From the NCBI GenBank assembly GCA_015493225.1, contig WGDO01000087.1:514-64513 (forward strand): a DNA stretch of 64,000 nucleotides. The letters are read 5' to 3'. Below the pieces are notes generated by a model. That model made no database searches and was not told where the DNA came from. It was given only the letters and a program-made list of their open reading frames with translations. Below, piece after piece: positions 3,850-37,906 of the stretch. The translations under genes were made by a program, and so were the position numbers. Position 1 is the stretch's first letter. Each line of letters opens with the position of its first letter. Source of the DNA: Patescibacteria group bacterium (lineage in GTDB: Bacteria > Patescibacteriota > Minisyncoccia > Moranbacterales > DUUL01).

Positions 3850-4644
3850 ATGCTTAACTTTGCTGCAATTTGCCCCCATCCTTTAATATTGGCACCAGGA
3901 ATTAAAAGTTCCGAGAAAAATCTTCTACAAAAAACAACCAAATTTATTGATATTTTAGCTAGTGACCTACGAAAAACAAATCCTGACAATATCATCATCA
4001 TATCACCTCGCGGACCAATGCGCTATGATAAGTTTACCATTAATTTTGAAACTTCTTTCAAGGGGAATTTTGTTGAATTTGGTGGAGATGATTATGATTA
4101 TGTTTTCAAGAATAATTTAGAATTATCCCGTCAAATATTACGCTACCTACGTAAAAAACACGCACCCGTAGATATTATCAGAGAATCAAATTTAGATTAT
4201 GGTAGCTTAACTCCTTTAATTCATCTTACTAAAAATTTAGATAAAAAGCCAAAAATAATTCCTCTAACCTTTACCGCCACCGACTGGGATGCTCAATATA
4301 AATTTGGAAAACAGCTCAGCACAATTTTAGAAGAATCAAATGAAAGTAGCGCCATTATTGCCAGTGCCCATTTATCTAATCGACTCACCGAAGAAGCCCC
4401 TGCTGGCTTTTCTCCCTATGGTATTAAATATGACTCTACTATTACTAAACTCCTCCAAGAAAATGAAATTGACAAAATCAAAGCTCTTAATCCGGAATTT
4501 TGTGAAGAAGCCGGTGAAGGTGGTCTGCAGGCAATTTTGATAACCCTCGGCGCCATTGCCCACACTCGTCACTCCTTTCATCAACTCTCCTATGAAAACC
4601 CTCTGGGAACTGGATATTTAGTTGGAAAATGGGATATAAAATAA
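3850..4644 (+). CDS. Class III extradiol dioxygenase (LigB / MEMO-like) family protein
   Basis: 264 aa. The N-terminal AAICPHPLILAPG and the later IIASAHLSNRL resemble the two His-containing motifs of the LigB-type extradiol dioxygenase fold. The function in this organism is unknown. Confidence 0.45.
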   Translation: MLNFAAICPHPLILAPGIKSSEKNLLQKTTKFIDILASDLRKTNPDNIIIISPRGPMRYDKFTINFETSFKGNFVEFGGDDYDYVFKNNLELSRQILRYLRKKHAPVDIIRESNLDYGSLTPLIHLTKNLDKKPKIIPLTFTATDWDAQYKFGKQLSTILEESNESSAIIASAHLSNRLTEEAPAGFSPYGIKYDSTITKLLQENEIDKIKALNPEFCEEAGEGGLQAILITLGAIAHTRHSFHQLSYENPLGTGYLVGKWDIK

Positions 4645-4694
4645 TTAAGAATTTAGAGATTAAGAGTTTAGGAATTTGAAGTTATTTTTTTAGT

Positions 4695-4786
4695 CACCCC
4701 CTGTGTAAAGGGGGTCAAATTTTCTTGTCATTTTTATTTGTCAACTAGTTGACAAATAAAAATGCCAAGAAAATTTGGGGGTTTTT
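4695..4786. repeat. Long GC-clamped hairpin repeat element, family C (cacccccTGTGTAAAgggggtcaaaTT...AAtttgggggttttt)
   Basis: Perfect palindrome tcaaattttcttgtcatttttatttgtcaac-tag-ttgacaaataaaaatgccaagaaaatttg flanked by a ccccc/ggggg mini-hairpin and a GGGGG-TTTTT tail. Other copies are at 11795, 13383 and 33593. Confidence 0.8.
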
Positions 4787-4871
4787 GAGAATTTTAAGTT
4801 TTAAGCTTTAAATCTGTTCATAGAGGTCATAATTCAATAAAGACCACAAAAAATAAATTTCAAACTAAAAA

Positions 4872-7049
4872 ATGAAAAACTACTACCAAATCATCCCCCT
4901 AGTACGACTCCCCTTAACAAAGTCTAATGATTTTACATATCATTCAGATAAAATTATTAAATTTGGTTCGATTGTTAAAATAAATTTAAATAATAAAACC
5001 GTCAGGGGAGTTATTATTAAAAATAAAATTACCAAGCCGACATTTAAAACTTCTCCCATTCTACAAACAATTATTCCCGCTCAAATTACCAAACAACAAC
5101 TTAGATTAGCAAAACTGATATCAAACTATTATCTCACCCCCCTGAGTACCACTTTAAAATTTTTTGCCTTTAAATTAACAAAGAAAGATAACACTAAATA
5201 TTTTGAAAACCTAGTCAAACAAATAGAAAAAATAAACGAATCTAAATGGCAAAAAAAAATTACCTTAACCAAAGAACAAAAAAAAGCCATTAAAAAAATA
5301 ACTTCCCAAAGACCAAATACTGAATCCGCATTTAAAAATAATAACCTCGACAAAAAAAATAAAATACTTTCAACTTTTGACCCCAAGTCATCCAACGGGG
5401 TAAACTTTCAATCTTCAACTCTATTATTTGGCCCTCCCGCTTCCGGCAAAACCGAAGTCATTATTGGGGTTATTAAAAATGTTCTTAGAAAGAAACAACA
5501 AACTTTAATCCTCATTCCGGAAATTTTTCTCTCCTATCAAGAAATTGTACGTTATAGTGGAAAATTTTTAAAAGAAGCAACCAAAGAAGTGGCCATTTTA
5601 CATTCTCAACTCAAGCAATCGGAAATCACAACTATCTGGAATGGTGTTCAAAGTGGTCAAATCAAAATTGTCATCAGTACTCGTATGGGAATTTTTCTTC
5701 CCTTTCAAAACCTTGGTCTAATTATAGTTGACGAAGAACAAGATATTTCCCATAAACAATGGGATACCCCACCATTTTATCACATCCGACAAGTTGCCGA
5801 ATTAATGCAAAAAATTTATACTGAGGTCCAAACAATCTTAGTGTCCTCAACTCCTTCCCTGGAAAGTTGGCATAGATATTCAAATAACCCAAACCACCAG
5901 ATTATTAAACTCCCAGCTCTAAAAACAAACTCCATTACTATAAAACCACCGGAGATAAAATTGGTAGATCTAAAAAAATACTACAAAAAAAATCAACAGA
6001 TTTTCATTTCCAACGAGTTACGATTCGGATTAAAAAATTGTTTAGACCAAAATACCATAGCTATGTTATTGGTTCCTCGTCGGGGAAAAAGCCGTACTAT
6101 AATTTGTCAAGATTGCCACGAAGTACCCACCTGCCCAAATTGCCAAGTACCCTTAGTTCATAGTGAAAATAATTATCGTTGCCTACACTGCGATTTTAAA
6201 ATCTCCAATATTTCCAAATGTCCCCACTGTGGAAGCTTTCGATTACAGGATGTCGGTTTTGGAACAGAAAGCGTTGCTGATAATCTGCAAAATATATTCC
6301 CCTCCGCCAAGGTAGCCATTGCCGATAACACAACTTTCGCCAATAATAATTTTCGACGAAAAATTTTAAAACAATTATATAATAATGAGCTTGACTTTTT
6401 AATTGGCACCTACGGCATCGCCAAGGGATTAGACATTAAGGCTGTAAATTTAGTAGCCATTCTCAATGCCGATAATTGGCCAGGACAAACAGACTTTCGT
6501 TTTGATGAAAATTATCTAAGCACTATTTTTCAATTAGCCGGACGGGTTAACCGTCCCGGTAGTAAACAAACTGGACAATGTCTTATCCAAACCTTTGACC
6601 CTACCAATAGAATTTTCACCTATTTAAAAGACTGGGATTGGCCAGCTTTTGTAAAATACGAACTAAAAAATAGAAAATCATTAAGCTATCCACCATTTAT
6701 ACATCTTCTAAAAATAACCCACAGAAATTACAACCGAGAAACTGTTGAAAAAGAATTAGACAAACTTCACAAAAAATTAGAGAAATACACCCACAACAAG
6801 CAAAGCAATACAACAAGCGAAGCAATCCAACGAGGTGCCAACCGATCCAACAAACAAAACGATAAAACAAACGAAGTGATCCAACTTCTCCCCCCTTATT
6901 TTGGCTACCAAGAAAAATTACGAGGCTATTGGCAAAAAAATCTTCTTCTAAAAATAAAAACTCTACCGATTACCGACAAAAAACTTCTTAAAATTCTAGA
7001 CCTCCCTACAAATTGGAAAATAGACGTCGACACAGAGAATATTTTTTGA
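4872..7049 (+). CDS. priA: Primosomal protein N' (PriA helicase)
   Basis: 725 aa. Walker A GPPASGKTEV, DEEQD Walker B-like motif, and the characteristic Cys4-Cys4 zinc-binding insertion (CQDCHEVPTCPNCQ...CLHCDF...CPHCGS) inside the helicase C-terminal domain. Confidence 0.85.
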   Translation: MKNYYQIIPLVRLPLTKSNDFTYHSDKIIKFGSIVKINLNNKTVRGVIIKNKITKPTFKTSPILQTIIPAQITKQQLRLAKLISNYYLTPLSTTLKFFAFKLTKKDNTKYFENLVKQIEKINESKWQKKITLTKEQKKAIKKITSQRPNTESAFKNNNLDKKNKILSTFDPKSSNGVNFQSSTLLFGPPASGKTEVIIGVIKNVLRKKQQTLILIPEIFLSYQEIVRYSGKFLKEATKEVAILHSQLKQSEITTIWNGVQSGQIKIVISTRMGIFLPFQNLGLIIVDEEQDISHKQWDTPPFYHIRQVAELMQKIYTEVQTILVSSTPSLESWHRYSNNPNHQIIKLPALKTNSITIKPPEIKLVDLKKYYKKNQQIFISNELRFGLKNCLDQNTIAMLLVPRRGKSRTIICQDCHEVPTCPNCQVPLVHSENNYRCLHCDFKISNISKCPHCGSFRLQDVGFGTESVADNLQNIFPSAKVAIADNTTFANNNFRRKILKQLYNNELDFLIGTYGIAKGLDIKAVNLVAILNADNWPGQTDFRFDENYLSTIFQLAGRVNRPGSKQTGQCLIQTFDPTNRIFTYLKDWDWPAFVKYELKNRKSLSYPPFIHLLKITHRNYNRETVEKELDKLHKKLEKYTHNKQSNTTSEAIQRGANRSNKQNDKTNEVIQLLPPYFGYQEKLRGYWQKNLLLKIKTLPITDKKLLKILDLPTNWKIDVDTENIF

Positions 7050-7130
7050 TATAATAAACTTATCTCTTAAAGTATCAACCCCTTAAATTATCAAATTCCT
7101 AATTTCTTAAATTCTTAATCTTCTAATCAT

Positions 7131-7571
7131 ATGCTAGAAATTATTACCTATCCAAATCCAATTTTAACCAAGCCCTGTCAACCAATTGCCAACCCCACAG
7201 ACTTAGAAATAAAACAATTAATTACTGACATGACAAAAGCCATGCGAGCTCACGACGGACTGGGTTTGGCCGCTCCTCAAATTGGAAAAAATATCCGCTT
7301 ATTTTTAACAGAAATAGACCACGAATTAATGGTATTTATTAATCCAGAGATACAAAAATTGTCCGGGAAAGATACTCGGGCAGAAGAAGGATGTCTATCT
7401 TTCCCCGGCCAATATTTACCCGTTGTGCGACCTGATAAAGTTAAAATTAAATTTACTGATACTAGTGGACAAAAACAAATTATAAAAGCCAACGGTCTTT
7501 TGGCTCGAGCTATTCAACATGAATTTGATCACCTGGAAGGAATTTTATTTATAGAGAGAACTGATTCTTAG
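7131..7571 (+). CDS. def: Peptide deformylase
   Basis: All three PDF motifs are present: GLGLAAPQIG, EGCLSFPG and QHEFDHLEG. Confidence 0.92.
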   Translation: MLEIITYPNPILTKPCQPIANPTDLEIKQLITDMTKAMRAHDGLGLAAPQIGKNIRLFLTEIDHELMVFINPEIQKLSGKDTRAEEGCLSFPGQYLPVVRPDKVKIKFTDTSGQKQIIKANGLLARAIQHEFDHLEGILFIERTDS

Positions 7572-7582
7572 CACACAAAATG

Positions 7583-7701
7583 CAAGATACAAATAACAAG
7601 ATACAAACAAATCACAATAACCAATTCTCAAAAAATATTTAAATTTTGGTTATTGAAATTTGAAATTTGTTTGTTTCTTGTTATTTGTAACTTGTATCTT
7701 G
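7583..7701. repeat. Long imperfect palindrome caagatacaa...aataaccaa / ttggttattg...ttgtatcttg (family F)
   Basis: About 120-bp inverted repeat in the def-fmt spacer. Related copies are at 22150-22250, 37283-37362 and 43621-43745. Confidence 0.7.
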
Positions 7702-7739
7702 TATTCTATATTCCATTAATTATCCCACTTAATACATCT

Positions 7740-8723
7740 ATGATGTCTAACAAAAAAAATAACCAACCATTAAAAATAACATTTTTCGGTGCTCCCCATT
7801 TTTCCGGGGAGATTTTAAAATTTTTGATTAAAAATAATTTTACACCCCAATTAATAATTACCCATCCAGACCAATCAATAGGACGCAAAAAAATATTAAC
7901 CCCCACTAAAACTAAAACTATCGCCAAGAAAAATAATATTTCTATTAAAGAATTTAACTCACTTGATCATAAAGCTATTAAATATTTTCAAACAAACCCT
8001 CCAGACCTAATTATCACCGCTTCCTATGGATTAATTATTCCTCCGGAAATTATCAACTCAGCAAAGTTTGGTGCTTTAAATGTTCACCCTTCATTACTAC
8101 CCAGACTACGAGGAGCTACTCCGATTCAAACAACCCTCCTACAAGGATCACAAACAACTAGCTCCACCATCATGCTGATGGATGCCGGCATGGACACCGG
8201 AGACATTATTGCCCAAAAGCAATCACCAATCAGCCCCACCGACACTTATCCTAAATTAGAACAGAAACTAATTAAACTATCCACTGAGTTACTTTTACCA
8301 ATTCTGGAAAATATTCAAAAAACCAGACAAAAACCAGTCGGAAAACAACAGAATAATTCTCAAGCAACCTTCACTAAACTTATTAAAAAACAAGACGGCT
8401 TAATTGATTGGAATAAATCAGCTCAAGAAATTTATAATCAATGGCGAGCTTTTTATGACTGGCCAAAAATTAACACTTTCTATAAACAACAAAAATTAAC
8501 CTTAACTGAGATTGAAATATTTTCCAAAGATGCTATAATTAATGACGTAAACATTGTCGCTTCCGGCACTGTTTTTAAAAACGAAAACAAAGAAATTTTA
8601 GTTCAAACTGGCGAAGGTCAAATAAAAATAAACAAATTACAACTAGCTGGAAAAGAAGCATTAAACATATCTGATTTTCTGAATGGACAACCCCAATTCA
8701 TTGGCACTAATCTTGCGAAATAA
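7740..8723 (+). CDS. fmt: Methionyl-tRNA formyltransferase
   Basis: The N-terminal formyltransferase domain has ITFFGAPHFS and LNVHPSLLPRLRGATPIQ (the SLLP motif), followed by the C-terminal Fmt domain. I place the start at the internal ATG at 7740 (MMSNKK...) because the ORF-track start at 7653 runs through the palindromic repeat. Confidence 0.88.
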   Translation: MMSNKKNNQPLKITFFGAPHFSGEILKFLIKNNFTPQLIITHPDQSIGRKKILTPTKTKTIAKKNNISIKEFNSLDHKAIKYFQTNPPDLIITASYGLIIPPEIINSAKFGALNVHPSLLPRLRGATPIQTTLLQGSQTTSSTIMLMDAGMDTGDIIAQKQSPISPTDTYPKLEQKLIKLSTELLLPILENIQKTRQKPVGKQQNNSQATFTKLIKKQDGLIDWNKSAQEIYNQWRAFYDWPKINTFYKQQKLTLTEIEIFSKDAIINDVNIVASGTVFKNENKEILVQTGEGQIKINKLQLAGKEALNISDFLNGQPQFIGTNLAK

Positions 8724-8726
8724 AAA

Positions 8727-9554
8727 ATGAAAAATAAAAATATTACTCAAAATTTTCAACATTTCAAGCCATTGTTAATTGGTTTTATTTTAATTATTTT
8801 AATCACTGGATATTTTCTAACGAAAACTTGGCAAACAAAAAATCATTTAAATGAATTAGAACAAAGACTGAAAAACAAAAATCAGGAAAGCCAAAACATA
8901 AACATTGAAACAGTCACTCCAGAAAATGTCTACCAATGGATTAATAAATCGGATGTTCAGCTTATAGATATTAGAAATAACAATGAATACAACATCAAAC
9001 ACATTGAATCCTCCATTAATATTCCTTTAGATTCCATCAAAAAAAATATTAGTAAATTTAATAAAAATAAACAACTTATCATCATTGACCGCGAAAATAA
9101 TCTAGAAGGAAAAATATTAGTTGATCATTTTAAAAAAGAAGGATTAAATATTAAATATTTAGAAGGTGGGATTTTAAAATATGCTCAAGAAAATTATCCA
9201 CTAATTACCAATGGTGACCCAACTGTTAAAACAAATTTATTAAAGATTAAACCAATTGCCGCCGAAGAAGTAAAAAAAGATTTATTAAGTGGAAAAATTT
9301 TCTCTTTTATAGACACTCGACCTTCTTTATCTTATAATCTAGACAAAATAGGTGGGAGTACAAATATTCCCTTAGAAAAGATTGAGGAATCAAAAGACTC
9401 TTTACCAACTCATATCTTATTATTATACGATACTAATCCAGAAAGAAGTTTCAAGGCCGGTGTTAAACTCTACGACATGGGTATTTCCAATTTTTATGTT
9501 TGCACCGACACCTACGAACAATTAAAACAAACTTTATTTAATAAACAAAAATAG
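8727..9554 (+). CDS. Membrane-anchored tandem rhodanese-domain protein
   Basis: N-terminal TM helix followed by two rhodanese-like modules (DIRNNNEYNIKHIESSINIP ... FIDTRPSLSY...GGSTNIP). Confidence 0.6.
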   Translation: MKNKNITQNFQHFKPLLIGFILIILITGYFLTKTWQTKNHLNELEQRLKNKNQESQNINIETVTPENVYQWINKSDVQLIDIRNNNEYNIKHIESSINIPLDSIKKNISKFNKNKQLIIIDRENNLEGKILVDHFKKEGLNIKYLEGGILKYAQENYPLITNGDPTVKTNLLKIKPIAAEEVKKDLLSGKIFSFIDTRPSLSYNLDKIGGSTNIPLEKIEESKDSLPTHILLLYDTNPERSFKAGVKLYDMGISNFYVCTDTYEQLKQTLFNKQK

Positions 9555-9560
9555 ACTATC

Positions 9561-11789
9561 ATGACAAAAAAACATACTCAAAAGAAAAAAAACAAAAAGA
9601 AAAAATCATCCACAAAAAAACAGATTTCCTCCAACAAAAAATTCTTAAAAGAAAAGCATAATAAAAAAAGTAAAAAAATAGCCGGAAAAGAAATTGAAAA
9701 AATAGCTAGAGTTCAAATAAAAAAATCATTTAAAGACCGTCGAAAAAAAGTTATTAAAACTTCCTATTTAACTTTTATTTTAGTTTTTGCTATTCTAACA
9801 GTCATTGTAATTAACCTACGCCACCTCTTTCCACCAATTAAAACTTCCATTAAAAAACCAGAACCTCTCAATCTTAAACAAATAGACAATGAGGGAGATT
9901 TTATAAAAATACAAAATAGCTTAATAAAAAAATCATCAGAAATTTCCATAAACAATGAAGAAAAATGTCAAAATAACATCTTATTCAATACCAAAAAACA
10001 ACGATTCGTTACTGTTAATAAAAAATATTTGGTAATTTTAAAAAGAGGAAAATTATTTGTAACAAATCTCACCACAAACAAATACATTAGTAAAACAGAA
10101 ATTTCTCCAATCCCCCTAAAGGAAAAAGAAGCAATTCAATATAATAATATTTATGCAACCGACAATATAATAACCGTCACCGGCTACCGTCAGGCTAAAA
10201 AAGCTTTAGAAATATCTCTATTTGAATTATCTCCCAATGGTATTCTAACAAGAAAAGAAACTTATGATTTACCAAGTAATAAATGTTCCCAAGATGCCAA
10301 AATAATTAACGACAAATTTATTAGTTACACGGCTCGTAATCTAAGAACAACTAATTATCCAACAATTTCAGAAATAAATATCTGGAATGAAAAACAAAAT
10401 ATATTTGATAATAAACACGTAAATAATAGTCAACTTTTTTATAATAACTCAAAATTAGACACTCCCTACCTACACACTATTACTACTTGCCAAATTAAAG
10501 ATTCTGTTCTAAAAGCTTGCCGTCAACAAAATTTCATTGATAATAAAATTGACACATTAACTATTGATTCCAATAATCTATATGCCTGGGTCTCTCATCA
10601 AAAGACAGATAACCAAATAAAAAGAACCCTGCCAACTTCTTTTATTTATCAAATTAATTTACAAGAACAAAGCAACCCCAAAATCATTCAAGTAGATGGA
10701 ACACCTATCAAAAACAATAAGCTCAAAGTGAGCGATGACTACCTTAAAGCAACTATTTATCAAAACAACACTACCGCTCCCACCTGGTTAACAAATTTTT
10801 CCAACAACAGCCTAGCCTTATTATCAATAAATTTAGAAGATTTTCAAAACAAAGGCCTAATTATAGATAATCCTGATAATTATCAAATGCTACCTTCTGA
10901 TATTTCCTATTCTCCGGAAAATAAATTCATCGCTCAAAATGATACTCTATTGGAAATAAATTCTGATAACTCAAAAATAAAAATTACCAAAGACAATACG
11001 TTATCCACAATTGACATTCCTGGAAAGATGCTTACCAGTTACAATATTCCAGAGCAAAATAAACTGCTTTTAATATATGTCAAAGAAAATAACTTGTATG
11101 CTAATTATTTGAATTATTCTAATAATTTTAATTTTGGTCAAGAAATTGTTCTAGCCAACAAAATAGATGAGGAAAATACAACCGTTCTTAAGGATGAAAT
11201 AAATAATTTTAATTTAACTAATAATCAATTTATTAGCCTACCAATTATCAATCAACTCAAAAATAATGGGCAACTCTATCTGCTAACAATAAATTCTGAT
11301 ACACTTGCAAAAGCTTATATTCTCAATATCAACAAAAACTTCCAGAGACTAAATGATGGTTGTCAAAATTCTTGCCAAGAAGATTGGACTAAGTTGCTTA
11401 CATTTTTTCCCAAAGAAAATTTAAATAAAATTTACAGTTTAACGGGCAGTTATTTAAAATCATTTCGCCTTCTTAATCAAAACAAACTACAACTATTACG
11501 CTCCATTAACTACACCCTAAGGCCAGCTCCACCAAAACCTCGTCGACCAAAAGCCAAAATCCCCGGTGGAGCCAAGGTAGTTAATGGAAGATATGTTTGT
11601 GCTAAAAAACATGACTATGTCGGCAAGAGTAAAAAAAATAACAAAGGTTACTTACATATGGATATGGAATGTTGCTTAGACCCAGATGAATATCCAAATC
11701 CTTGGTGTACCTATCAACCAGGAGAACTAAAAGTAACAAAGCTTCGTGCAGCAGACTACCATGGACGAGTTAAGAAAAAACATCACTAA
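9561..11789 (+). CDS. Large membrane-anchored extracytoplasmic protein with Lys-rich cytoplasmic tail and Cys-rich C-terminus (hypothetical)
   Basis: 742 aa. The N-terminal 70 aa are very basic (KKKNKKKK), followed by one TM helix and a long Asn/Ile-rich domain. The last 90 aa carry C..CC..C and a Pro/Lys-rich segment. No family recognised. Confidence 0.5.
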   Translation: MTKKHTQKKKNKKKKSSTKKQISSNKKFLKEKHNKKSKKIAGKEIEKIARVQIKKSFKDRRKKVIKTSYLTFILVFAILTVIVINLRHLFPPIKTSIKKPEPLNLKQIDNEGDFIKIQNSLIKKSSEISINNEEKCQNNILFNTKKQRFVTVNKKYLVILKRGKLFVTNLTTNKYISKTEISPIPLKEKEAIQYNNIYATDNIITVTGYRQAKKALEISLFELSPNGILTRKETYDLPSNKCSQDAKIINDKFISYTARNLRTTNYPTISEINIWNEKQNIFDNKHVNNSQLFYNNSKLDTPYLHTITTCQIKDSVLKACRQQNFIDNKIDTLTIDSNNLYAWVSHQKTDNQIKRTLPTSFIYQINLQEQSNPKIIQVDGTPIKNNKLKVSDDYLKATIYQNNTTAPTWLTNFSNNSLALLSINLEDFQNKGLIIDNPDNYQMLPSDISYSPENKFIAQNDTLLEINSDNSKIKITKDNTLSTIDIPGKMLTSYNIPEQNKLLLIYVKENNLYANYLNYSNNFNFGQEIVLANKIDEENTTVLKDEINNFNLTNNQFISLPIINQLKNNGQLYLLTINSDTLAKAYILNINKNFQRLNDGCQNSCQEDWTKLLTFFPKENLNKIYSLTGSYLKSFRLLNQNKLQLLRSINYTLRPAPPKPRRPKAKIPGGAKVVNGRYVCAKKHDYVGKSKKNNKGYLHMDMECCLDPDEYPNPWCTYQPGELKVTKLRAADYHGRVKKKHH

Positions 11790-11794
11790 TCAAA

Positions 11795-11998
11795 CACCCC
11801 CTGTGTAAAGGGGGTCAAATTCTCTCATTACTTTTATTTGTTAACATAGTTAACAAATAAAAGTAATGAGAGAATTTGGGGGGTTTTTCGATTAATTACC
11901 TAAAAACCCCCGAAGCCTGGACAAGTTCTTTTTTAACTTTCTATCGAAAGTTAAAAAAGAACTTGTCCAACCTTCCGCCCCCCCCCCTAAAAAGGGGA
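11795..11998. repeat. Composite repeat: family C hairpin element (11795-11888) followed by family D hairpin element (11903-11998)
   Basis: Family C: caccccctgtgtaaagggggtcaaattctctcattacttttatttgttaacatagttaacaaataaaagtaatgagagaatttggggggttttt. Family D: cccccgaagcctggacaagtt...aacttgtccaaccttccgccccc. Family D recurs inverted at 39645-39730. Confidence 0.8.
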
Positions 11999-12059
11999 CA
12001 ACTTAAAGTCAATGACTTTGCATATGACCCCTATAAACTGTGAGCTATGAACCAAATAC

Positions 12060-12356
12060 TTAAAAACCAATTTTCCCACTCTTACCATTTAAATCCTCGG
12101 CTATATCGATCTTTCCAAACTGATCTTCGTAAGCTTTTAAAGTATTCTGCATCACTTCTATCATTTTTTTAAAATGCCCAGGAGAAGTGGTAATCTTTCC
12201 AACCATTTTTCCTGTTGGTGGCAAAATGTGCGCAAAAAGCAAATTAAATTCTTCTTTGTTATGTAAAATCTGCATTAGATTAGCATACTCCGCCCCCGCA
12301 ATATTATCGGAAATTTTAATCTCTTGTTGTTTAACCTGTTTATTATTTTTTGTCAT
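12060..12356 (-). CDS. DUF3467-family small protein
   Basis: 98 aa. The pattern AEYANLMQILHNKEEFNLLF...GKITTSPGHFKKMIEVMQNTLKAYEDQFGKI matches what I recall of DUF3467 (YSNxxxIxHSxxEFxxDF...LxxxLxxxIxxYExxFG). Confidence 0.5.
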   Translation of the reverse strand: MTKNNKQVKQQEIKISDNIAGAEYANLMQILHNKEEFNLLFAHILPPTGKMVGKITTSPGHFKKMIEVMQNTLKAYEDQFGKIDIAEDLNGKSGKIGF

Positions 12357-12452
12357 CTTTGTGCATTATTAATTTTTATAATTCTAGGTTAAAATCTGAA
12401 ATTTAATTCCTACATCTCTAAATGGTAGTTTAAAATTCCTAATTCTTAATTT

Positions 12453-13397
12453 CTAATTCTTAATTATTTTTGCCCATTCTTGCAATGCCTCCTCATAATT
12501 CCGCAAAGGTTTTCTTTTTCTATTTTGCAAAACAGAAACTTCTGCTCTTTTAGCCGGACGAGGAAATTCTTCTGGACCAACCGGAATTATCTTAGTATCC
12601 AATCCGAGTATTTTATACAGAGTTTTCAATCCCTCATACCAAGTAACTGCCCCTTCATTTACAATATGATAAATTCCAAAAGGTTCATTTTCTTCTACAA
12701 TATTTTTACTTTCCAAAGCTAAATCGGGAGCATAGGTAAATTTACTTAACTCATTATCTACCGCCTTTACTTCTTTGTTTTTTTTACCCAGATCCCCCAT
12801 TACCTCAAAAAAACTCTTTTTTCCCAAAGCATTTTTACTCAATCCTCCAAATAATTTTGACAGTCTAATAATGTAATATTTTTCACCTTGCTCCTCCACT
12901 GCTTGTTCTCCTTTGTATTTTGTCCAACCATAGCGACTTAAAGGATTGGGCTGGTCTTCTTCGGAATATTGCCAATAAGGAATAGTTTCTTCTTTACCCA
13001 TATATTGGCAACCATCACAACCACTGCCACAACAATGGGGAGCTCGTTGTCCACTCCGATAAGTCGGTCTTTTACCATCAAAAACATAATCTGTTGAATA
13101 GTGCGCCAAAACAGCTTCTAGATTTTTAGCAATTTTAGCCAGTTCTCCTGGCAGTTCTGTGTTTAAAATTTTTGCCTTGGCATATTCTTCATCATCTTCT
13201 TCACAAGAATCAACCGCATTATAAGCCACCGCATTATAAATTACATCCGGCCAAACTTCTTGAATCTTTTTTCGTAAATTTTCAAAGTCTCGTACATCCA
13301 CATCATCAATGTCCCAAGCAACCACCTCATATTCCGATTTCACCCCAGGCGCCTGCCCCTCGAAGCCATTTTGGCGAAGTGGGGTAAAGGGGGTCAA
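12453..13397 (-). CDS. dTDP-4-dehydrorhamnose reductase-like protein (RmlD family). The ORF lacks the Rossmann GxxGxxG, which lies upstream in another frame across a repeat insertion
   Basis: STDYVFDG and YGWTKYKGE match the RmlD catalytic Y/K region, and NAVAYNAVD matches the RmlD NAAAYTAVD motif. The ORF starts on TTG inside family C repeat copy 13383-13435. The canonical N-terminus MQKILILGSKGMLGSELVRLYGDGF is encoded at 13403-13519 in a different frame and terminates at a TGA inside the repeat. A Cys-rich insertion (HCCGSGCDGCQY) is also present. Confidence 0.55.
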   Translation of the reverse strand: MTPFTPLRQNGFEGQAPGVKSEYEVVAWDIDDVDVRDFENLRKKIQEVWPDVIYNAVAYNAVDSCEEDDEEYAKAKILNTELPGELAKIAKNLEAVLAHYSTDYVFDGKRPTYRSGQRAPHCCGSGCDGCQYMGKEETIPYWQYSEEDQPNPLSRYGWTKYKGEQAVEEQGEKYYIIRLSKLFGGLSKNALGKKSFFEVMGDLGKKNKEVKAVDNELSKFTYAPDLALESKNIVEENEPFGIYHIVNEGAVTWYEGLKTLYKILGLDTKIIPVGPEEFPRPAKRAEVSVLQNRKRKPLRNYEEALQEWAKIIKN

Positions 13398-13435
13398 AGA
13401 TTCGAGGTCACGAGAATCTTTGGGGGTTTTTCAGT
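13383..13435. repeat. Short family C repeat copy (ggtaaagggggtcaaagattcgaggtcacgagaatctttgggggttttt) inside the rmlD-like gene
   Basis: Same conserved ends as 4695-4786 and 11795-11888 with a short palindromic core gattc-gaggtcac-gagaatc. Confidence 0.75.
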
Positions 13436-13524
13436 ATTAAAACCATCACCATACAACCGCACTAACTCCGACCCTAACATCCCCTTCGATCCTAAAATCA
13501 ATATTTTTTGCATAAATAATTATT

Positions 13525-14778
13525 TTAATTGTTTGATTTTTTCACTATCCTATCAATAGCTAATTTATAACTGGCGCGCCGATAAGTTAAATTTTCTTTT
13601 CTGGCCATTGTTTTCACTTCCTCATAGGCACCGACAATTTTCTCTTTTAATTTATCATTGACCTCTTCCAAACTCCAGTGCTCATTGTCCAAATTTTGGC
13701 GCCATTCAAAATAAGATACAATCACTCCTCCGGAATTAGCTAAAATACCGGGAATAATTTTTATCTCATTATTAACCAATGTTCTCTCCGCTATTGGTAA
13801 AATCGGTCCATTGGCCAACTCCAGAATCATTTTAGCTTTGATTTTTTCGGCATTTTTGGCGGTAATTACTCCGCCCAGAGCCGCCGGAATTAACAAATCC
13901 ACTTCTGCCGTTAACAATTCTTCATTGCTAATTTTTTGTTCTTCTTGATAAGTAATTAATTTTTTGATTTTATTTTCTTCACCATAAATATAATCGATTA
14001 ATTTGGGGATATCCAAACCATCTTTATTATACAACCCACCGGAAGAATCGGAAACGGCCACCACTTTATAGCCGGCTTTAAACAATAAATCGGCCATCAC
14101 CGAACCGGCATTTCCAAAGCCTTGAATGGCCACGGTTATTTCACTTTTATCTATTACCGATTCATACTCTTTTTCCAAAATATAAAATCCTCCCCGAGCA
14201 GTGGAACGGTCTCGCCCTTCCGAACCTCCTTTTTCTATCGGTTTCCCGGTGATGAATGCCGGACTGGGTTTACCGGCAATTTTCTCGTATTCATCTAACA
14301 TCCAAGCCATAATTTGCGGATTGGTATTTACATCCGGAGCGGGGATATCCTTATGGGGGCCAAGAACCTCAAAAAGAGCCCGCACATAACCGCGAGCAAT
14401 TTGCTCCAATTCTTTGTCGGAATAATTTTCCGGATTAATTCTTACCCCTCCTTTGGCTCCACCATAGGGTAAATCAACTAAAGAAGTTTTTAGGGTCATT
14501 CCGAAAGCCAATTCAGTTACTTCATCCAGGTCAACTGCCGGATGAAACCTAATTCCTCCTTTGCCCGGACCTAAAATGGTATTATACTGAACCCGCCAAG
14601 CAGTGATTATTTTCACAGAATTGTCATTTTTGGTAATCGGATAATTCACTTGCACAATTCGTTCCGGTTGTTTTAGTAAAATCAACCGGTCCTTACTTAA
14701 TAATTTTTCTTGTCGAATGTTTTCCAATTCGGTTTTACAATTTTGGCAAACTATCAGCTCCCCTTCTCCATAAATCAT
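13525..14778 (-). CDS. Glutamate dehydrogenase (Glu/Leu/Phe/Val dehydrogenase family)
   Basis: GPGKGGIRFHP substrate motif, catalytic-Lys region GGAKGG, C-terminal NAD(P) Rossmann IQGFGNAGS. A short N-terminal Cys-containing extension is present. Confidence 0.88.
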   Translation of the reverse strand: MIYGEGELIVCQNCKTELENIRQEKLLSKDRLILLKQPERIVQVNYPITKNDNSVKIITAWRVQYNTILGPGKGGIRFHPAVDLDEVTELAFGMTLKTSLVDLPYGGAKGGVRINPENYSDKELEQIARGYVRALFEVLGPHKDIPAPDVNTNPQIMAWMLDEYEKIAGKPSPAFITGKPIEKGGSEGRDRSTARGGFYILEKEYESVIDKSEITVAIQGFGNAGSVMADLLFKAGYKVVAVSDSSGGLYNKDGLDIPKLIDYIYGEENKIKKLITYQEEQKISNEELLTAEVDLLIPAALGGVITAKNAEKIKAKMILELANGPILPIAERTLVNNEIKIIPGILANSGGVIVSYFEWRQNLDNEHWSLEEVNDKLKEKIVGAYEEVKTMARKENLTYRRASYKLAIDRIVKKSNN

Positions 14779-19800: not shown

Positions 19801-21114
19801 CTACTTACTACCTACTAATTTTATCCATTTTTTATTTTTTAACTCCGCTGGCAAAAATTCCTGCTGAGCATTTTCTCTCTTGCTGGCCTTTGGGGTATAT
19901 TTATAATCTTTTCCATAGCCAAGGTCTCCCATTAATTTTGTGGGGGCGTTACGGATGTGTAATGGCACCGGAAGGTTTCCTGTTCGTTTAATATCTTCCA
20001 TAACATTTTCGTATGCTTCGTATAACGCAATTGATTTTTTACTCTTAGCCATATAAACCGCCGCCTGAGCCAAATTTACACCGCACTCCGGCATCCCAAT
20101 AAATCGACAAGCATCGTAGGCAGCGGTTGCCTGAGGCAAAGCTAAACTATTCGCTAACCCAATATCTTCACTGGCAAAACGAATTATTCGTCGAGCAATA
20201 TAAAGTGGATCTTCTCCCCCCGCCAACATTCTATTCATCCAATACAAAGTAGCGTTCTCATCTCCACCACGCATTGATTTATGAAAAGCACTAATAATAT
20301 TATAATGCTCATCACCAGCACGGTCGTAAAGTAAATTTGATTTTTGAAGAGCTTGTTCAATGTTCTTTTTGGTGATACATTTATCTTCCCTCTTTCTTAA
20401 AGAGGGACTGGAGGGAGATTTCTTTTTTCTAAAATCCCCCTTTAATCTCCTTTTTTTTAAAGGAGGAAGATTATTTGTCAAATCAACTGCCAGTTCCAGG
20501 GCATTTAACATTGTCCGCGCATCACCATTACTCAATTTTACTAAATATTCTTTATTCTTTTTAGTAATTTTTAACTGTCTATTTCCAATCCCTTTATCTT
20601 TATCCTTCAGGGCCTGATTTAAAATAGCTAATAATTCTTCTTCCGTTAAGCTCTCCAAAACAAACGTCCGACAACGAGAGAGTAACGCGTTGTTAACTTT
20701 AAAACTAGGATTTTCCGTAGTTGCTCCGATTAAAATCATCGTACCATTTTCTACGCTTGGTAAAAAAGCATCCTGTTGGGCTTTATTAAAACGATGGATT
20801 TCATCTATAAACAAAATGGTTTTCTCTCCTAGTCGTTTGTCTTTCTCCGCTCGCTCCACAACGTCTCTAATATCTTTAACTCCAGCATTAATAGCACTAA
20901 TTTGATTAAAATTTGCTTTTGTTTCGTTGGCTATAATCCTAGCCAAGGTTGTCTTGCCCGTTCCCGGCGGGCCCCAAAACAAAAGAGAGGGAATTTTATC
21001 CCCTTGGATTAACTCTCTTAAAATTTTTCCCTCACCAACCAAATGTCTTTGCCCCTGAAATTCTTTCAAACTCCTCGGCCTCATTCGATTAGCAAGCGGT
21101 GACTGAGTTGTCAT
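19801..21114 (-). CDS. rarA: Replication-associated recombination protein A (RarA/MgsA AAA+ ATPase) carrying a repeat-derived in-frame insertion
   Basis: Walker [12 protein letters not shown], Walker [13 protein letters not shown], sensor GATTENP, C-terminal MgsA helical domain. A 27-aa basic insertion [27 protein letters not shown] is encoded by a palindromic repeat copy at about 20386-20470. Confidence 0.88.
20386..20470. repeat. Family A/B-type palindromic repeat copy embedded in-frame in rarA
   Basis: ccctctttcttaaagaggg hairpin, then ggagggagatttc, then aaaatccccctttaatctcctttttttttaaaggagg. These are the same building blocks as the intergenic arrays at 36540-36790 and 55531-55630. Confidence 0.65.
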
Positions 21115-22093: not shown

Positions 22094-22149
22094 TTTTTAA
22101 TAATTTATTTATTAAGATATTCTATTATTGTATAACAAACAATAATTTC

Positions 22150-22250
22150 CAAGATACAAGATACAAACAAATTCCAAACACCAAATGCCAAATTTCAAAC
22201 ATTGGTTATTGAAATTTGAGATTTGTTTGTATCTTGTAATTTGTATCTTG
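22150..22250. repeat. Family F long palindrome (caagatacaagatacaaacaa...ttgtttgtatcttgtaatttgtatcttg)
   Basis: The inverted arms are separated by ccaaacaccaaatgccaaatttcaaacattggttattg. Located between rfbB and the DUF456 gene. Confidence 0.7.
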
Positions 22251-22328
22251 TTTCTTTTTCTAATACCACATCCTTATAATTAACAAACATTCAATCCCAA
22301 CCAATAAACAATTAAGTCGTAATTTCGT

Positions 22329-27196: not shown

Positions 27197-27664
27197 TTAT
27201 ACCATATCTACCCCAACAATTCTACTATTTTTCACACCCTTACCATATTTAAATTTCAACAACCAATACTTTTTCGGCCAGATTTTCTTAATTCGTTCCG
27301 GCCACTCCACTAAAATTAAATTATTTTTGTCAGCAATAATTTCTTCCCAACCCAAATCCAAGACACTCTCCTCATCAACCCGATAACAATCCAAATGATA
27401 AACATTTTTGAGTTGAGAGGCCCGGCCTCTCAACTCATACTTTTTCATAATCACAAAAGTAGGCGAAGTAAAAGGCCCTTCCGCCCCAATCGCTTCCAAT
27501 AAAAATTGACTAAAAGTAGTTTTACCTGTCCCCAACTCTCCCTGTAACAAAATTACATTTCTATCCGCCTTGCCATCTAGGTAAGACGCCGGGCTTCTTA
27601 CCTCTACTAAAAATTCTTTAGCAAATTGTTTGGTATCTTGTAAATTTTTTAATACTTTTTCCAT
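27197..27664 (-). CDS. tsaE: tRNA threonylcarbamoyladenosine biosynthesis protein TsaE
   Basis: P-loop LQGELGTGKTTFSQ and TsaE-typical SPTFVIM...YHLDCYRV motifs. 155 aa. Confidence 0.85.
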   Translation of the reverse strand: MEKVLKNLQDTKQFAKEFLVEVRSPASYLDGKADRNVILLQGELGTGKTTFSQFLLEAIGAEGPFTSPTFVIMKKYELRGRASQLKNVYHLDCYRVDEESVLDLGWEEIIADKNNLILVEWPERIKKIWPKKYWLLKFKYGKGVKNSRIVGVDMV

Positions 27665-30998: not shown

Positions 30999-32456
30999 TT
31001 AATTCTTAATTAATCTCTCTCCCACCAGATAAACATCGCCGGCACCCATGGTTATTAAAAGGTCGTTTGATCGAAGAGTTTTTTGAAAATATTTTATGGA
31101 TTCGGGAATAGTGTGAAGGTTTTTGACTGTTTTGTCGGGATTTTGTTTCTTTATTAAATCAATTAAATCGTCACTGGAAACTCTTCCTTGCTTCTCACGA
31201 GCAGAACCAAAAATATCTAACAGATAAATTTCATCGGCATCCGCAAAACTCTGAGAGAATTCTTCCAACAATGCTTCCGTCCGAGTAAAAGTATGAGGAT
31301 GAAAAATACATTTTATATTTTTATCAGGATATCTATTTTTAGTCGCTTGCAAAGTCGCTTGCACCTCCACTGGATGATGAGCATAGTCGTCTATAATCAA
31401 AACTCCCTTGTATTCTCCTTTTGTTTCAAATCGTCGAGCCGTTCCCTGAAAATTTTGCAAAGCTTGACGAACCTTTTGCTCGTCTAATCCTAATTTTTGA
31501 CAAACCTTAAAAGCACCCATGGCATTCAATAAATTATGCTTGCCAAATAATTGCATTTTTTCTTTGGCTTGACGAATAGCCGGACAACAACCAAATGTTT
31601 TGCCGTGGCAATTATCGTCAGCGCAAAAGCTGTCATCCAACAATACTTCCCTGGCCCCAACTTCATCATAAAAAATTACCTCACATTTTGCTGACTGAGT
31701 TATTTCCACCACATTTTTATCTCCGGCATAGGCCACCAAAAAACCATCTTCCGGAATTCGGGCTACAAAATTTCTAAACACCTGCTTATATTCTTCTTCG
31801 CTCTTAAAAAAATCCGGATGATCATAATCGGCCGAAGTTAAAATCACCGCCCGAGGATTATAATATTGTAATTTATTTTGATATTCATCCGCCTCAATTA
31901 CAAAATACTTTGCAAAGGTCGGGCCTTTGCAACTATCGGTAATTAAAGTATTGCTCTGCCACTCCAAAACCTTTGAGCCAACCAAAGCAGTTAAATTTTC
32001 CACACCTGCTCTTTCCATAGCCGTCGCCAACATCGCCGTAGTAGTTGTTTTACCATGAGTTCCGCACACAGCAATTCCAAATTCTGCTTGATTAAAAACC
32101 ATTCCCAGAGCCTGGGGATAACTCATTATTTTAAAATGCTGTTCAGTAGTCTCCATGGCATATTTTAATTCAGGATTTGTTTCCGGTTGAACTGAAGTGG
32201 AATAAATTATTAAATCTATCTTCCCTACTCCGCCTAAATCATCTTTTATATCCTGAAAACTACTCTCTAAATTTTTCTCATCAAACTTATGAAAAACCTG
32301 AATTCCCTTCTTTTTCAAAACATCATAATAAAAATGATCTCCCTCATCTGAGCCAGTAATATTTTTCCCCTGAGCTTGCAAAATAGACGCCAACGCCGAC
32401 GTTCCCGCCCCTTCGATTCCAATTATATAAATATTTTTAATTGTATCTAGATTCAT
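30999..32456 (-). CDS. murC: UDP-N-acetylmuramate--L-alanine ligase
   Basis: N-terminal IYIIGIEGAGTSALA (Mur ligase Rossmann), central GTHGKTTTTAML P-loop, and the C-terminal Mur ligase domain. It has an unusual Cys-rich insertion (FCADDNCHGKTFGCC). The last codons, IKN-stop, lie in an aattcttaatt repeat. Confidence 0.85.
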   Translation of the reverse strand: MNLDTIKNIYIIGIEGAGTSALASILQAQGKNITGSDEGDHFYYDVLKKKGIQVFHKFDEKNLESSFQDIKDDLGGVGKIDLIIYSTSVQPETNPELKYAMETTEQHFKIMSYPQALGMVFNQAEFGIAVCGTHGKTTTTAMLATAMERAGVENLTALVGSKVLEWQSNTLITDSCKGPTFAKYFVIEADEYQNKLQYYNPRAVILTSADYDHPDFFKSEEEYKQVFRNFVARIPEDGFLVAYAGDKNVVEITQSAKCEVIFYDEVGAREVLLDDSFCADDNCHGKTFGCCPAIRQAKEKMQLFGKHNLLNAMGAFKVCQKLGLDEQKVRQALQNFQGTARRFETKGEYKGVLIIDDYAHHPVEVQATLQATKNRYPDKNIKCIFHPHTFTRTEALLEEFSQSFADADEIYLLDIFGSAREKQGRVSSDDLIDLIKKQNPDKTVKNLHTIPESIKYFQKTLRSNDLLITMGAGDVYLVGERLIKN

Positions 32457-33405: not shown

Positions 33406-34251
33406 TTAAAACTCCAAAAACTTCCCTTCCAAATAATTCTTAATTGGCTCGGCGGTGGTTTGGGTAATTTTCTCCGGCAAATTATCCATCGCAAACCAGC
33501 CAATCTTATCACACTTATGAGGCTCCATATTCTTTGGCTGACCACTTTTTATCTTGGCAATAAAATTTAAAGCTACCCAGTGTTCAATTTTTTCACCCCC
33601 TGTGCTGAGCCCAGCGGATGCAGGGTAAAGGGGGTCATCCCCCCTTTCGCGAAAAGGGGGATGGGGAGTTTTTATAATATGATCAGTATGAAGCAAGTAA
33701 CCAACAATCTCCACCTTAATACCCAATTCTTCTTTCATTTCCCTAATCATTGCCTTTTCTGCCGTCTCTCCGAACTTCACCCCTCCACCAGGCTTGCTCC
33801 ACCAACCAGCCTCATTACGAACTTCACCCGCCCGCCGAATTAACAAAACTTCCTTTTTATCATTAAAAATCAAACACCCTCCCCCAACACCAATGTAATC
33901 TTTACCTTTTATTAATTTAGATTGCTCTGCATTGCTAGCTTCTCCGTTAATTATGGCTACTTTATTTTTTCTATAAATAAAAACTTGCCATAAAATTATA
34001 CCCGTAGTTAAAACTCCAAGGCCTTGCCCTATAATTATTACTTTATCATTTTTTAACACTCCATAATATGCCCAAAGCAAATATGCTAGCCAGGCTATAA
34101 CCCAAAATGAAATAGACTGTCCCTCAGTCGACTTCCGTCTATAATTTTTTCTAATTTGATCTGGTAATCCAATAACTTTTACCAATATTCCGATGGCCAG
34201 TGTCAGAAATGATACAACCCCAATAAGTGTAATTGATTGTAATAATTCCAT
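33406..34251 (-). CDS. Membrane-anchored NUDIX hydrolase (3 N-terminal TM helices) carrying an in-frame family C repeat insertion
   Basis: Nudix box GGGVKFGETAEKAMIREMKEELGI. Three N-terminal hydrophobic helices. The 27-aa segment KTPHPPFRERGDDPLYPASAGLSTGGE is encoded by repeat copy 33593-33673. Confidence 0.8.
   Translation of the reverse strand: MELLQSITLIGVVSFLTLAIGILVKVIGLPDQIRKNYRRKSTEGQSISFWVIAWLAYLLWAYYGVLKNDKVIIIGQGLGVLTTGIILWQVFIYRKNKVAIINGEASNAEQSKLIKGKDYIGVGGGCLIFNDKKEVLLIRRAGEVRNEAGWWSKPGGGVKFGETAEKAMIREMKEELGIKVEIVGYLLHTDHIIKTPHPPFRERGDDPLYPASAGLSTGGEKIEHWVALNFIAKIKSGQPKNMEPHKCDKIGWFAMDNLPEKITQTTAEPIKNYLEGKFLEF
33593..33673. repeat. Family C repeat copy (81 nt, 3n) inside the NUDIX CDS
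   Basis: caccccctgtg...cagggtaaagggggtcatcccccctttcgcgaaaagggggatggggagttttt. It has the same termini as 4695-4786 and 11795-11888 and an internal ccccccttt-cgcg-aaaggggg hairpin. Confidence 0.75.
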
Positions 34252-35919: not shown

Positions 35920-35956
35920 CTCTCTAAAAAATAAAGACACTTGAAGTGTCTTTATT
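35920..35956 (-). terminator. Rho-independent terminator of rnpB
   Basis: Minus strand: AAAGACACUUCAAGUGUCUUU followed by AUUUUUU. Confidence 0.65.
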
Positions 35957-35958
35957 TT

Positions 35959-36382
35959 GATGACCAATCTTTAAGCCGGGTTCTGTTTAGATAATCATTT
36001 ATCTACGTTAATTATTACTAATTAACTTTAGCGGTTCAAATTCTAAATTAATAGAAAATACGACTTTACATCAGATAGGGTTTACCACTCAATCCAACCC
36101 ATACTAATGAACTGGATTTCAAACTCGCCATCACTGACAAGCGCGCCGGGTAATTCCGAAAAATACCCCGACACTTTTCACCTTTCTCCAGCTCCTGCAA
36201 GCAGGGGCTGGGTAGTATAGTCTCTGCGGCACTGTCCCTGAATAATTATTACTAATTATCCGATTGGCGTTACCAATTATCATTAAGAATTTAATCTCAC
36301 GATGCCCAGACTTTCCTCCCAGTCCTGAATTTAAAATTTTTTAATAAAAAATTTTAAATTCAGAGCTGGGTAATTATCAAAT
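35959..36382 (-). ncRNA. rnpB: RNase P RNA (bacterial type A-like)
   Basis: Minus-strand transcript contains the P4 5' strand GGAGGAAAGUCUGGGC (rc of 36306-36321), the P4 3' strand ACAGAACCCGGCUUA (rc of 35972-35986), and an AGAAAGGUGAAAAGUG...CGGGGUA...UACCCGG P10-P12-like region. A P3 hairpin and a P1 pairing UUGAU...AUCAA are present. No ORF covers this 1.1-kb gap. Confidence 0.8.
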
Positions 36383-36539
36383 CAGTCCTACCTAATATAC
36401 CAGAAAAACCCTCCTTTGTCAAGATAATTTGTACATTTCACAGAAGTTAAAGTAATCAATAGCTTATCCCAAAGTTAGTGCGGTCGTCGCAACTTTGGGA
36501 AAAATTATTGCCAATAATGTAGATTGCTGTTAAACTAAA

Positions 36540-37374: not shown

Positions 37375-37906
<532 letters not shown>

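Follow-up and report, generated by a model that had tools for sequence, protein, structure and literature searches.

The window analysed here is a 64,000-nt stretch of contig WGDO01000087.1 (assembly GCA_015493225.1) from a Patescibacteria group bacterium, with a G+C content of 34% and a GC skew that is negative throughout. It carries four copies of a short palindromic repeat, family C, all on the + strand. Copy 1 (4695-4786) is intergenic, 50 nt past the stop codon of a LigB-like gene (3850-4644 +) and 85 nt ahead of priA, and copy 2 (11795-11888) begins 5 nt past the TAA stop of a gene for a 742-residue protein (9561-11789 +), in a terminator-like position. The other two lie within genes: copy 3 (13341-13434) is antisense in rmlD, and copy 4 (33594-33673) is antisense and in frame in a NUDIX gene. 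We conclude that family C is probably a lineage-restricted, non-autonomous, mobile repeat that resembles the Rickettsia palindromic elements (RPEs) in its behaviour, a judgement that covers the mobile, RPE-like nature of the repeat and not the chemistry of its transposition.

Architecture, cores and range of family C

Each family C unit is ~55-95 nt long and has the layout (Y)CA-CCCCC-TGTGTAAA-GGGGG-TCA-(core hairpin)-GGGGGG-TTTT(T), so that in letter form its ends read (Y)CACCCCCTGTGTAAAGGGGG at the 5' end and GGGGGGTTTT at the 3' end. We refer to the first hairpin, with its clamp of a C-run and a G-run, as P1 and to the second, core hairpin as P2. In copy 1 the leading CA occupies 4695-4696, the P1 C-run CCCCC 4697-4701 and, after the loop TGTGTAAA, the P1 G-run GGGGG 4710-4714; TCA then leads into the AT-rich core hairpin (4718-4776), the second G-run (4777-4781) and the T-run (4782-4786). 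The tail of the window copies is GGGGG(G)TTTTT. The unit has sharp ends. Over ~55 copies, information content is at background level right outside (Y)CA-CCCCC at the 5' end, and at the 3' end it drops past GGGGGG-TTTT(T), with a weaker (C/A)AG thereafter.

The original prediction placed four copies of family C and two of a second family, D, in the window, and all six are real. Of the two termini that it took to be common to the four family C copies, GTAAAGGGGGTCA is indeed found exactly four times in the window, always on the + strand and once in each copy, whereas CACCCCCTGTG is exact in only three of them. The full 23-mer CACCCCCTGTGTAAAGGGGGTCA occurs twice, against 5e-11 occurrences expected from base composition. 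Copy 3, which had been read as a 5'-truncated unit at 13383-13435, proves to be complete, its P1 loop being split by a nested palindrome of ~33 nt (13347-13383); copy 4 carries a 21-nt nested insert at the same point of the loop.

RNA folding of the family C copies gives P1 and P2 as adjoining hairpins, after which the G-run and the U-run are left unpaired. This structure is common to all four window copies, but its stability is marked only in copies 1 and 2 (minimum free energies -45.1 and -53.3, z-scores -8.1 and -13.2), with z-scores of only -2.2 and -1.3 for copies 3 and 4. Nor are the cores completely different from one another, as had been supposed. Copies 1 and 2 both have a core of subfamily c, a 60-nt AT-rich hairpin, with 78% identity between the two. 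Other core types are confined to copy 3, with a short core of type a' (AAGATTCGAGGTCACGAGAATCTT), and copy 4, with a GC-rich core of subfamily b (TCCCCCCTTTCGCGAAAAGGGGGATG). Across contigs and genomes the cores group into about six discrete, recurring subfamilies, which include a (AAAATTCGAGGAACGAGAATTTT, with compensated variants such as a' and further forms in which an extra small hairpin is nested in the loop), b (TCCCCCCTTTCGCGAAAGGGGGGATG), c, d (AATTTTTCGAAGAAAAATTT) and e (~63 nt). Small palindromes of other kinds also nest in the hairpin loops of family C. The stem base AAA(A)TT...AATTT is common to subfamilies a, c, d and e, and the variable part is therefore the distal portion of P2. 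What had been described as a templated, variable core is better seen as a few heritable subfamilies in which the stem base is conserved and other small palindromes have become nested.

Pairing in the core hairpin is maintained by compensatory changes. In nine copies of subfamily c the 28-bp helix is 98% paired, with 10 pairs altered on both sides; none of 500 shuffles gave covariation as high, and moving the partner by 1-3 columns brings pairing down to 42-54%. On the + strand of core c there are eight G-T wobbles to three A-C mismatches, a weak hint as to which strand matters. We considered and set aside the idea that family C began as a simple terminator, CCCCC-loop-GGGGG-TTTTT, that gained a core while its G-run was duplicated: no coreless form of family C occurs among the sequences examined, a weak test in that copy retrieval needed GGGGGTCA.

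The distribution of the element was examined by scanning a gapped exact P1 pattern against collections of species-representative genomes, metagenome contigs and viral contigs. Five matches were found in the 185,579 species-representative genomes. Three of these (L002, L004 and L005) have the whole architecture; the other two, L001 and L003, fit the gapped pattern by chance. In the metagenome collection 47 contigs match, nearly all from one set of related samples, while the viral contigs contain no match to the pattern and therefore give no link to phage. With only three true hits in so many genomes, the termini do not represent a consensus found in the terminators of AT-rich genomes generally, an outcome that the original prediction had named as one that would refute it; further copies do exist, about 50 of them in related contigs.

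All three genome-collection contigs with the element resemble the window in composition. L002 is labelled Moraniibacteriota, and the labels of the other two, Lutibacter (L004) and Bdellovibrionales (L005), might be taken to imply a wide host range. We rejected this on their window-like composition (33-35% G+C with negative GC skew), and both contigs are probably mis-binned in their metagenome-assembled genomes (MAGs). L005 is also syntenic with the window over MurC, a hypothetical gene and NUDIX. The element is therefore regarded as restricted to one clade related to the window genome. One window protein recurs residue for residue in MAG GCA_027039935.1 (JALUMK010000042.1) and in an independent Logan assembly, and the homologues of the window NUDIX and RmlD proteins that bear names are all from Patescibacteria, Parcubacteria or Moranbacteria. 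When the whole window was searched against Rfam at gathering thresholds, only RNase P and tRNAs passed and no copy was matched; in E-value mode over 4500-13600, the matches to the element are to generic hairpin models, below threshold.

Copies within genes and turnover at orthologous sites

Fifteen of 58 copies lie inside long reading frames, as called mechanically, and 13 of the 15 are antisense to the gene. The hosts represent at least 12 families: NUDIX, RmlD, MurC and two other Mur ligases, AlaRS, CysRS, a LeuRS-like class I synthetase, SMC, Fpg, a GT4 glycosyltransferase, a GH114 protein and a thiamine pyrophosphate (TPP) enzyme. The copies are read in two stop-free frames, the third, which contains TGA, never being used. 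The first frame gives the peptide (L/I)KTPQN(F/S)RSSNFDPLYTGG(E/G), also written KTPQNxRSSNFDPLYTGG, and the second gives EKPPKDSRDLESLTPFTQGV; the element-encoded stretch amounts to 19-27 residues. A homology search with a 42-residue query, the two element-encoded peptides joined, returned a single candidate, the word index requiring longer matches. Intron-like removal or ribosomal bypass of the in-gene copies need not be invoked, since the frame is kept and only the stop-free frames are read.

For copy 4, which lies in the NUDIX domain of a PQ-loop/NUDIX fusion gene (33406-34251 -) and encodes KTPHPPFRERGDDPLYPASAGLSTGGE, the location of the insert can be placed on a structural model. An AlphaFold2 prediction for the window NUDIX domain, made with 63 sequences, has a mean predicted local distance difference test score (pLDDT) of 84, with values above 90 for the fold itself. 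Residues 83-104, within the element peptide, have pLDDT below 50; they are the turn at a β-hairpin tip, where strand 65-81 leads into strand 107-122. Among homologues this loop ranges from 5 to 45 residues. For this one modelled protein, the insert is predicted to sit in a surface or loop region that is compatible with the fold.

The rmlD gene (dTDP-4-dehydrorhamnose reductase; 12453-13523 -), which hosts copy 3 in its N-terminal part, is the exception to the rule that the frame is kept open. The G-run of copy 3 (13422-13426) is GGGGG, compared with GGGGGG in the in-frame orthologue of L025, and this difference of 1 nt shifts the frame within the element and splits rmlD into reading frames of 39 and 314 residues. 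Both the NCBI MAG and the independent Logan assembly have the gene split in this way. It could represent a pseudogene, homopolymer slippage of the kind that underlies phase variation, or a sequencing error shared by the two.

Comparison of orthologous genes gives sites both with and without the element. In RmlD the site is empty in L061, L058 and L060 (...AAT CCT GAA AAA/TAT GAA...) and filled in L025, L062, L063 and the window, where the family C element stands right after GAAAAA; in L059 an element of family E/G lies within 9 nt of the same point. For NUDIX, distant relatives have an empty loop of 5-11 residues (HTDHII-KKEGQ-HW), and in the subclade with the sequence xIEHW the point is occupied by differing inserts. 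These are a family C element with core b and a loop insert in the window and P0001, family C with core a in P0009/L051 and P0007, a chimera with another repeat in P0004/L057, and several unrelated inserts of up to 45 residues. MurC offers two such sites. Site 1 is filled in L005, L055 and L056 and has unrelated sequence in the window. Site 2 differs between two near-identical contigs: in L055 it is occupied by a C(b) element that itself contains a nested repeat, and in L056 by two copies of another small palindrome, TTGCAAAGGTCGGGCCTTTGCAA, which is present once in the window (31910-31932; murC 30999-32456 -).

Since orthologous sites are found both filled and empty, the element inserts. Sites that already hold a palindrome are re-used or overwritten, so that lineages differ in the element found in one and the same protein loop; new copies are also seen directly beside decayed older ones in L005, L013 and L048. 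Together with the in-frame copies in unrelated housekeeping genes and the dispersal over related contigs, the filled and empty orthologues uphold the earlier suggestion of a mobile element. The likeness to RPEs that was proposed with it is borne out by the same in-frame copies and dispersal, and by a peptide tolerated in a protein loop. The loop at MurC site 2 can be recorded separately as a hot spot for different palindromes.

Strand bias, transposition and rival explanations

Family C is not distributed evenly between the strands. Of 57 copies, 46 have the + strand of the element on the C-rich strand, and the figure is 40 of 47 when only loci with an absolute skew above 0.1 are counted, the skew being noisy where it is taken from contigs of 1-2 kb; intergenic copies alone give 23 against 7. 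All in-gene copies obey the same rule, including the single sense-oriented one (CysRS, L032), and the copies on the G-rich strand are mostly found just past the end of a co-directional gene. Within the window the skew is -0.145 inside + strand genes and -0.337 inside - strand genes; as it is negative even in the former, its sign reports the replication strand. By coding bases, 78% of the window's genes are on the G-rich strand. Families D and E have no strand bias.

The flanks are asymmetric. The T-run is invariant at the 3' end only, so that an A/T run is always present at one end of the element. Upstream, a T4 run is found within 12 nt in 31% of copies compared with 16% in the background (p = 0.006), at anything between 2 and 9 nt from the element; such a run is missing from two thirds of the copies. 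In RmlD, TTTTTCAG, found 3' of the element, is already there in the empty alleles and therefore belongs to the target. The element prefers A/T runs, and a target-site duplication is possible.

How such an element might move can be suggested only tentatively. An enzyme whose gene lies at some other place in the genome would act on it in trans. Elements of the IS200/IS605 and REP-associated tyrosine transposase (RAYT) type insert beside a fixed oligonucleotide, cause no duplication and are coupled to the lagging-strand template. We lean, with less than even confidence, towards a hairpin-recognising mechanism of this kind, acting on single-stranded DNA through an HUH enzyme, because of the bias to the C-rich strand, the one-sided A/T run and the landing of secondary insertions in hairpin loops. 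In combination these features seem to fit the IS200/IS605-RAYT type better than a miniature inverted-repeat transposable element (MITE) of the DDE type.

Several observations tell against the view of family C as a mobile repeat, or against this mechanism for it. Movement is deduced from filled and empty orthologues rather than directly observed. The copies outside the window were all retrieved by an exact match to P1, and the conservation of P1 therefore looks higher than it is; loop variants (TGCGTAAA, TGCATAAA) and decay are seen among copies that came to light in other ways. The terminal inverted repeat comprises only the C/G clamp of 5-6 nt (CCCCC/GGGGG(G)), with none beyond it. A comparison of flanks with shuffled pairings gave a longest direct repeat of 4.18 against 3.92 +/- 0.12, a marginal result (z of about 2), and A-runs on both sides of the element in RmlD, NUDIX and the LeuRS-like gene do no more than suggest a duplication. 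The noise in skew from short contigs belongs here too, and the strand bias could come in part from selection against a hairpin and U-run in sense mRNAs; as its sole cause, such selection is weakened by the lack of bias in families D and E, which have similar tails. No transposase with matching ends was found in the window and the collected loci (296 kb), and a six-frame regular-expression search of the window and 63 loci, the same 296 kb, found no IS200-like TnpA N-terminal motif. Pfam searches of 40 of the 57 window open reading frames returned, as a mobile-element gene, only a remnant of IS110, which is associated with family D and not with family C.

The main alternative to this mechanism is that family C is a classical MITE. 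It would then have arisen by deletion from a DDE-type insertion sequence (IS) and be mobilised in trans; its C-run and G-run would serve as the terminal inverted repeats, and ~5 bp of an A/T-run target would be duplicated. The sharp ends of the element and the excess of upstream T4 runs agree with this, as do the best-resolved coding insertions, with the arrangements GAAAAG-element...GAAAAA in RmlD of L062, AAAAA-element-AAAAA in NUDIX and AAAAAG-element-TAAAAAG in the LeuRS-like gene. The inverted repeat falls well short of the ~10-40 bp by which MITEs are recognised, however, the gap to the T-run varies where there is a T-run at all, and the direct-repeat test is marginal; a family-specific bias to one replication strand would be unexpected for double-strand cut-and-paste transposition, and no parent IS with the same termini is seen in the 296 kb. 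The MITE label offered in the original prediction is not supported, its inverted repeat being the C5/G5 clamp only and its duplication not demonstrable, and we regard a MITE origin as possible but doubtful. Another explanation is that the family C elements are conserved Rho-independent terminators, alike because of their function, that evolved or were duplicated locally downstream of genes, without any mobility. Copies 1 and 2 end in a G-run and T-run just after co-directional genes, ~13 intergenic copies elsewhere are no more than 50 nt from the end of a co-directional frame, the G-rich-strand copies favour the same position, and the wobble excess in core c points the same way. A terminator role is plausible for + copies such as these two. 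It cannot be a general one, because intergenic copies that face a divergent gene start are about as many as those after a co-directional gene, a quarter of all copies are in coding sequence and nearly all of those antisense, and an unpaired G-run parts the U-run from the last stem. Most copies, moreover, are antisense to the dominant direction of transcription, and identical 23-mers at unrelated loci and in different genomes imply copying rather than convergence. A promoter/terminator scan, which flags the first hairpin only, is uninformative. As an account of the family as a whole, immobile terminators seem improbable to us.

Two further explanations start from the structure of the element. 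The conservation of P1 and of the base of the second stem, with a variable distal stem and strong covariation, would suit a structured small RNA gene or a cis-regulatory RNA, and the single 5' C-run, which could pair with either of two competing G-runs, recalls a switch. A DNA hairpin recognised in single-stranded form predicts the same covariation, and the lack of an Rfam match, of a conserved promoter and of conserved flanks, the free decay of in-gene copies, and the presence of antisense copies in coding sequence, where they are predicted to be translated in frame, make an RNA function very unlikely. Recombination sites of the integron attC or Xer/dif type, acted on by a tyrosine recombinase, would resemble family C in their conserved ends and variable centre, their length of 55-95 nt and their position 3' of some genes. 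The copies contain no GTTRRRY/RYYYAAC core, form no cassette arrays and occur within housekeeping genes, and no integrase is present in the 40 of 57 window reading frames scanned with Pfam; this is the explanation to which we give least credence.

For a mobile, RPE-like family C, the most economical reading of its function is that of selfish DNA, tolerated where it is harmless and occasionally co-opted. A broader scheme can be put forward as speculation, and is unlikely to be right. A replication-coupled, single-strand mechanism, specific to the family, would insert C/G-clamped hairpins by A-runs and into hairpin loops, so that the same surface loops of the essential proteins NUDIX, RmlD and MurC were rewritten time and again with different palindromic modules, and the C- and G-runs would switch genes off and on by slippage. 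Such switching is hinted at because a difference of 1 nt in run length splits the window rmlD.

Related repeats and comparison with known systems

The P1 form CCCCC-T(G/T)T(G/A/T)TAAA-GGGGG is common to family C, family D and the abundant family E (CCCCCC TTTGTAAA GGGGGG ATTGA GGGGGG ATTTT), for which reason the three look like one superfamily whose members differ in what comes after P1. Family D has the layout GCCCCC-TTTTTAAA-GGGGGC, CGGAAGG, a long hairpin, CTTC and GGGGG-TTTT. One copy (39636-39730 +; z-score -8.2) lies between two minus-strand pilin-like genes and the other (11902-11999 -; z-score -9.9) lies ~60 nt downstream of a DUF3467 gene (12060-12356 -). The two are 80% identical over 123 aligned columns and, as predicted, have opposite orientations. 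The second copy is not fused to family C copy 2 at 11795-11998, as had been thought; the two stand tail to tail, 13 nt apart, between convergent genes, where a terminator role is plausible, and the arrangement recurs in L006, L011, L050 and L052.

At the start of the window is the 3' part of an IS110-family transposase gene (1-672 +), with a Transposase_20 domain. Its frame is open from base 1 to 639 and is therefore cut by the contig end, rather than being the internal fragment originally described. In the 640-672 segment that follows, ~28 nt (TTGATTTTAAGTTGCCCCCTTTTTAAAG) are identical to half of the first hairpin of family D together with its flank. The prediction that these two places share a motif was correct, and the match suggests that IS110 inserted into the loop of a D-type hairpin. 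No further IS110 copies were found by tblastn in the collected loci.

Other repeats are plentiful. Dense clusters at 36536-36777, 37361-37462, 38779-38910, 43740-43900, 45122-45335 and 55546-55772 contain family E (complement AAATCCACCCCTAACCCCTCCTTT...), family G (GGCTACGCGGGACAAGCGC) and tandem heptamers (CTACTAT), and fill the space between genes, such as that downstream of the RNase P RNA gene. That gene (35956-36389 -; class A, 121 bits) itself shows expansions compared with the Rfam model, among them a long AU-rich stretch that extends an early stem. A repeat family of ~125 nt with a long AT-rich hairpin (CAAGATACAAATAACAAGATACAAAC ... GTTTGTTTCTTGTTATTTGTAACTTG) occupies at least four intergenic regions (7576-7700, 22136-22256, 37303-37365 and 43622-43744). 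Within genes, two family E-like hairpins are found at 20386-20468 in the coding sequence of MgsA/RarA (19801-21114 -), where the match to AAA_assoc_2 covers 105 residues for an 81-position profile, which fits an in-frame insert. The tsaE gene (27197-27664 -) contains a palindrome with a perfect 13-bp stem, TGAGTTGAGAGGCCCGGCCTCTCAACTCA, at 27409-27437. A small hairpin, family F (ACCCCGTTGGATGACTTGGGGT, - strand), at 5375-5410 in priA (4872-7049 +) encodes TFDPKSSNGVNFQ in frame, immediately ahead of the Walker A motif of PriA. In L016 and L046, family C copies have this module nested in their core loop.

The genomes of Patescibacteria, or the candidate phyla radiation (CPR), are tiny and densely packed with genes, and are generally taken to be streamlined; the window contig shows the opposite. 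Several families of palindromic repeats have invaded even essential genes (tRNA synthetases, Mur ligases, SMC), where they are read as extra loops. For annotation, this means that proteins become longer, that genes such as rmlD are split and that small spurious frames arise; for assembly and binning, that repeats and IS110 lie at contig ends; and for protein evolution, that ready-made loop insertions are available at hot spots. The sharp ends, the strand bias and the presence of filled and empty alleles in the same metagenomes give handles on mechanism, and family C offers a second, independent system beside Rickettsia in which to ask how such elements move. Full-text literature searches for palindromic elements, MITEs or in-frame repeat insertions in Patescibacteria yielded no description of such elements.

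Among known repeats, bacterial MITEs (Correia, ERIC, Nezha) are likewise small, non-autonomous, multi-copy and able to form hairpins, and are occasionally in frame, but they have clear terminal inverted repeats that match a parent IS, and duplications of fixed length, neither of which is shown for family C. Repetitive extragenic palindromic (REP) sequences and bacterial interspersed mosaic elements (BIMEs), with their RAYT (HUH Y1) enzymes, and IS200/IS605-derived elements share other traits. They are short GC-clamped hairpins recognised as single-stranded DNA, form modular composites, and have no target duplication, a fixed flanking oligonucleotide on one side and a replication-linked orientation. 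IS110/IS1111 members insert into REP-type hairpins, and here an IS110 adjoins half of a family D hairpin. REPs differ in being extragenic, with a 5' tetranucleotide of the GTAG type, whereas family C has two different hairpins and is often intragenic; nor did the motif search of the window and 63 loci find a RAYT or TnpA. The GC clusters, double-hairpin elements and 'byp' elements of fungal mitochondria are also GC-clamped palindromes in an AT-rich genome that invade coding regions and nest within each other. These are organellar and eukaryotic, and byp elements are skipped by the ribosome, whereas family C keeps the frame and is apparently translated. The pneumococcal SPRITE, BOX and RUP repeats combine a terminator-like hairpin with a T-run, cluster, insert into one another and are mainly intergenic (PMC10969869). 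Frequent in-frame insertion into essential genes is not known for them, RUP has IS-like inverted repeats and duplications, and their sequences are unrelated to family C.

We know of no report for RPEs of the replication-strand bias and same-site turnover seen in family C, and the latter is also distinct in its modular pair of hairpins, its C5/G5 clamp, its tail of G-run and T-run and its exchangeable cores. In behaviour, family C is nevertheless closest to these Rickettsia elements, RPE-1 to RPE-10 (Ogata et al. 2000, 2002, as summarised in PMC10969869). The RPEs too are short palindromic repeats of several families, found in a genome that is small and AT-rich; they occur between genes and, in frame, within many housekeeping genes that are unrelated to each other, encode a peptide tolerated at the protein surface or in a loop, and have no known associated transposase. 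They are longer, at ~100-150 nt compared with 55-95 nt, and their hosts are Alphaproteobacteria rather than Patescibacteria; no sequence relationship is expected, and the likeness is one of behaviour. We conclude that family C is probably a further case of RPE-like, protein-coding palindromic repeats, here in Patescibacteria.

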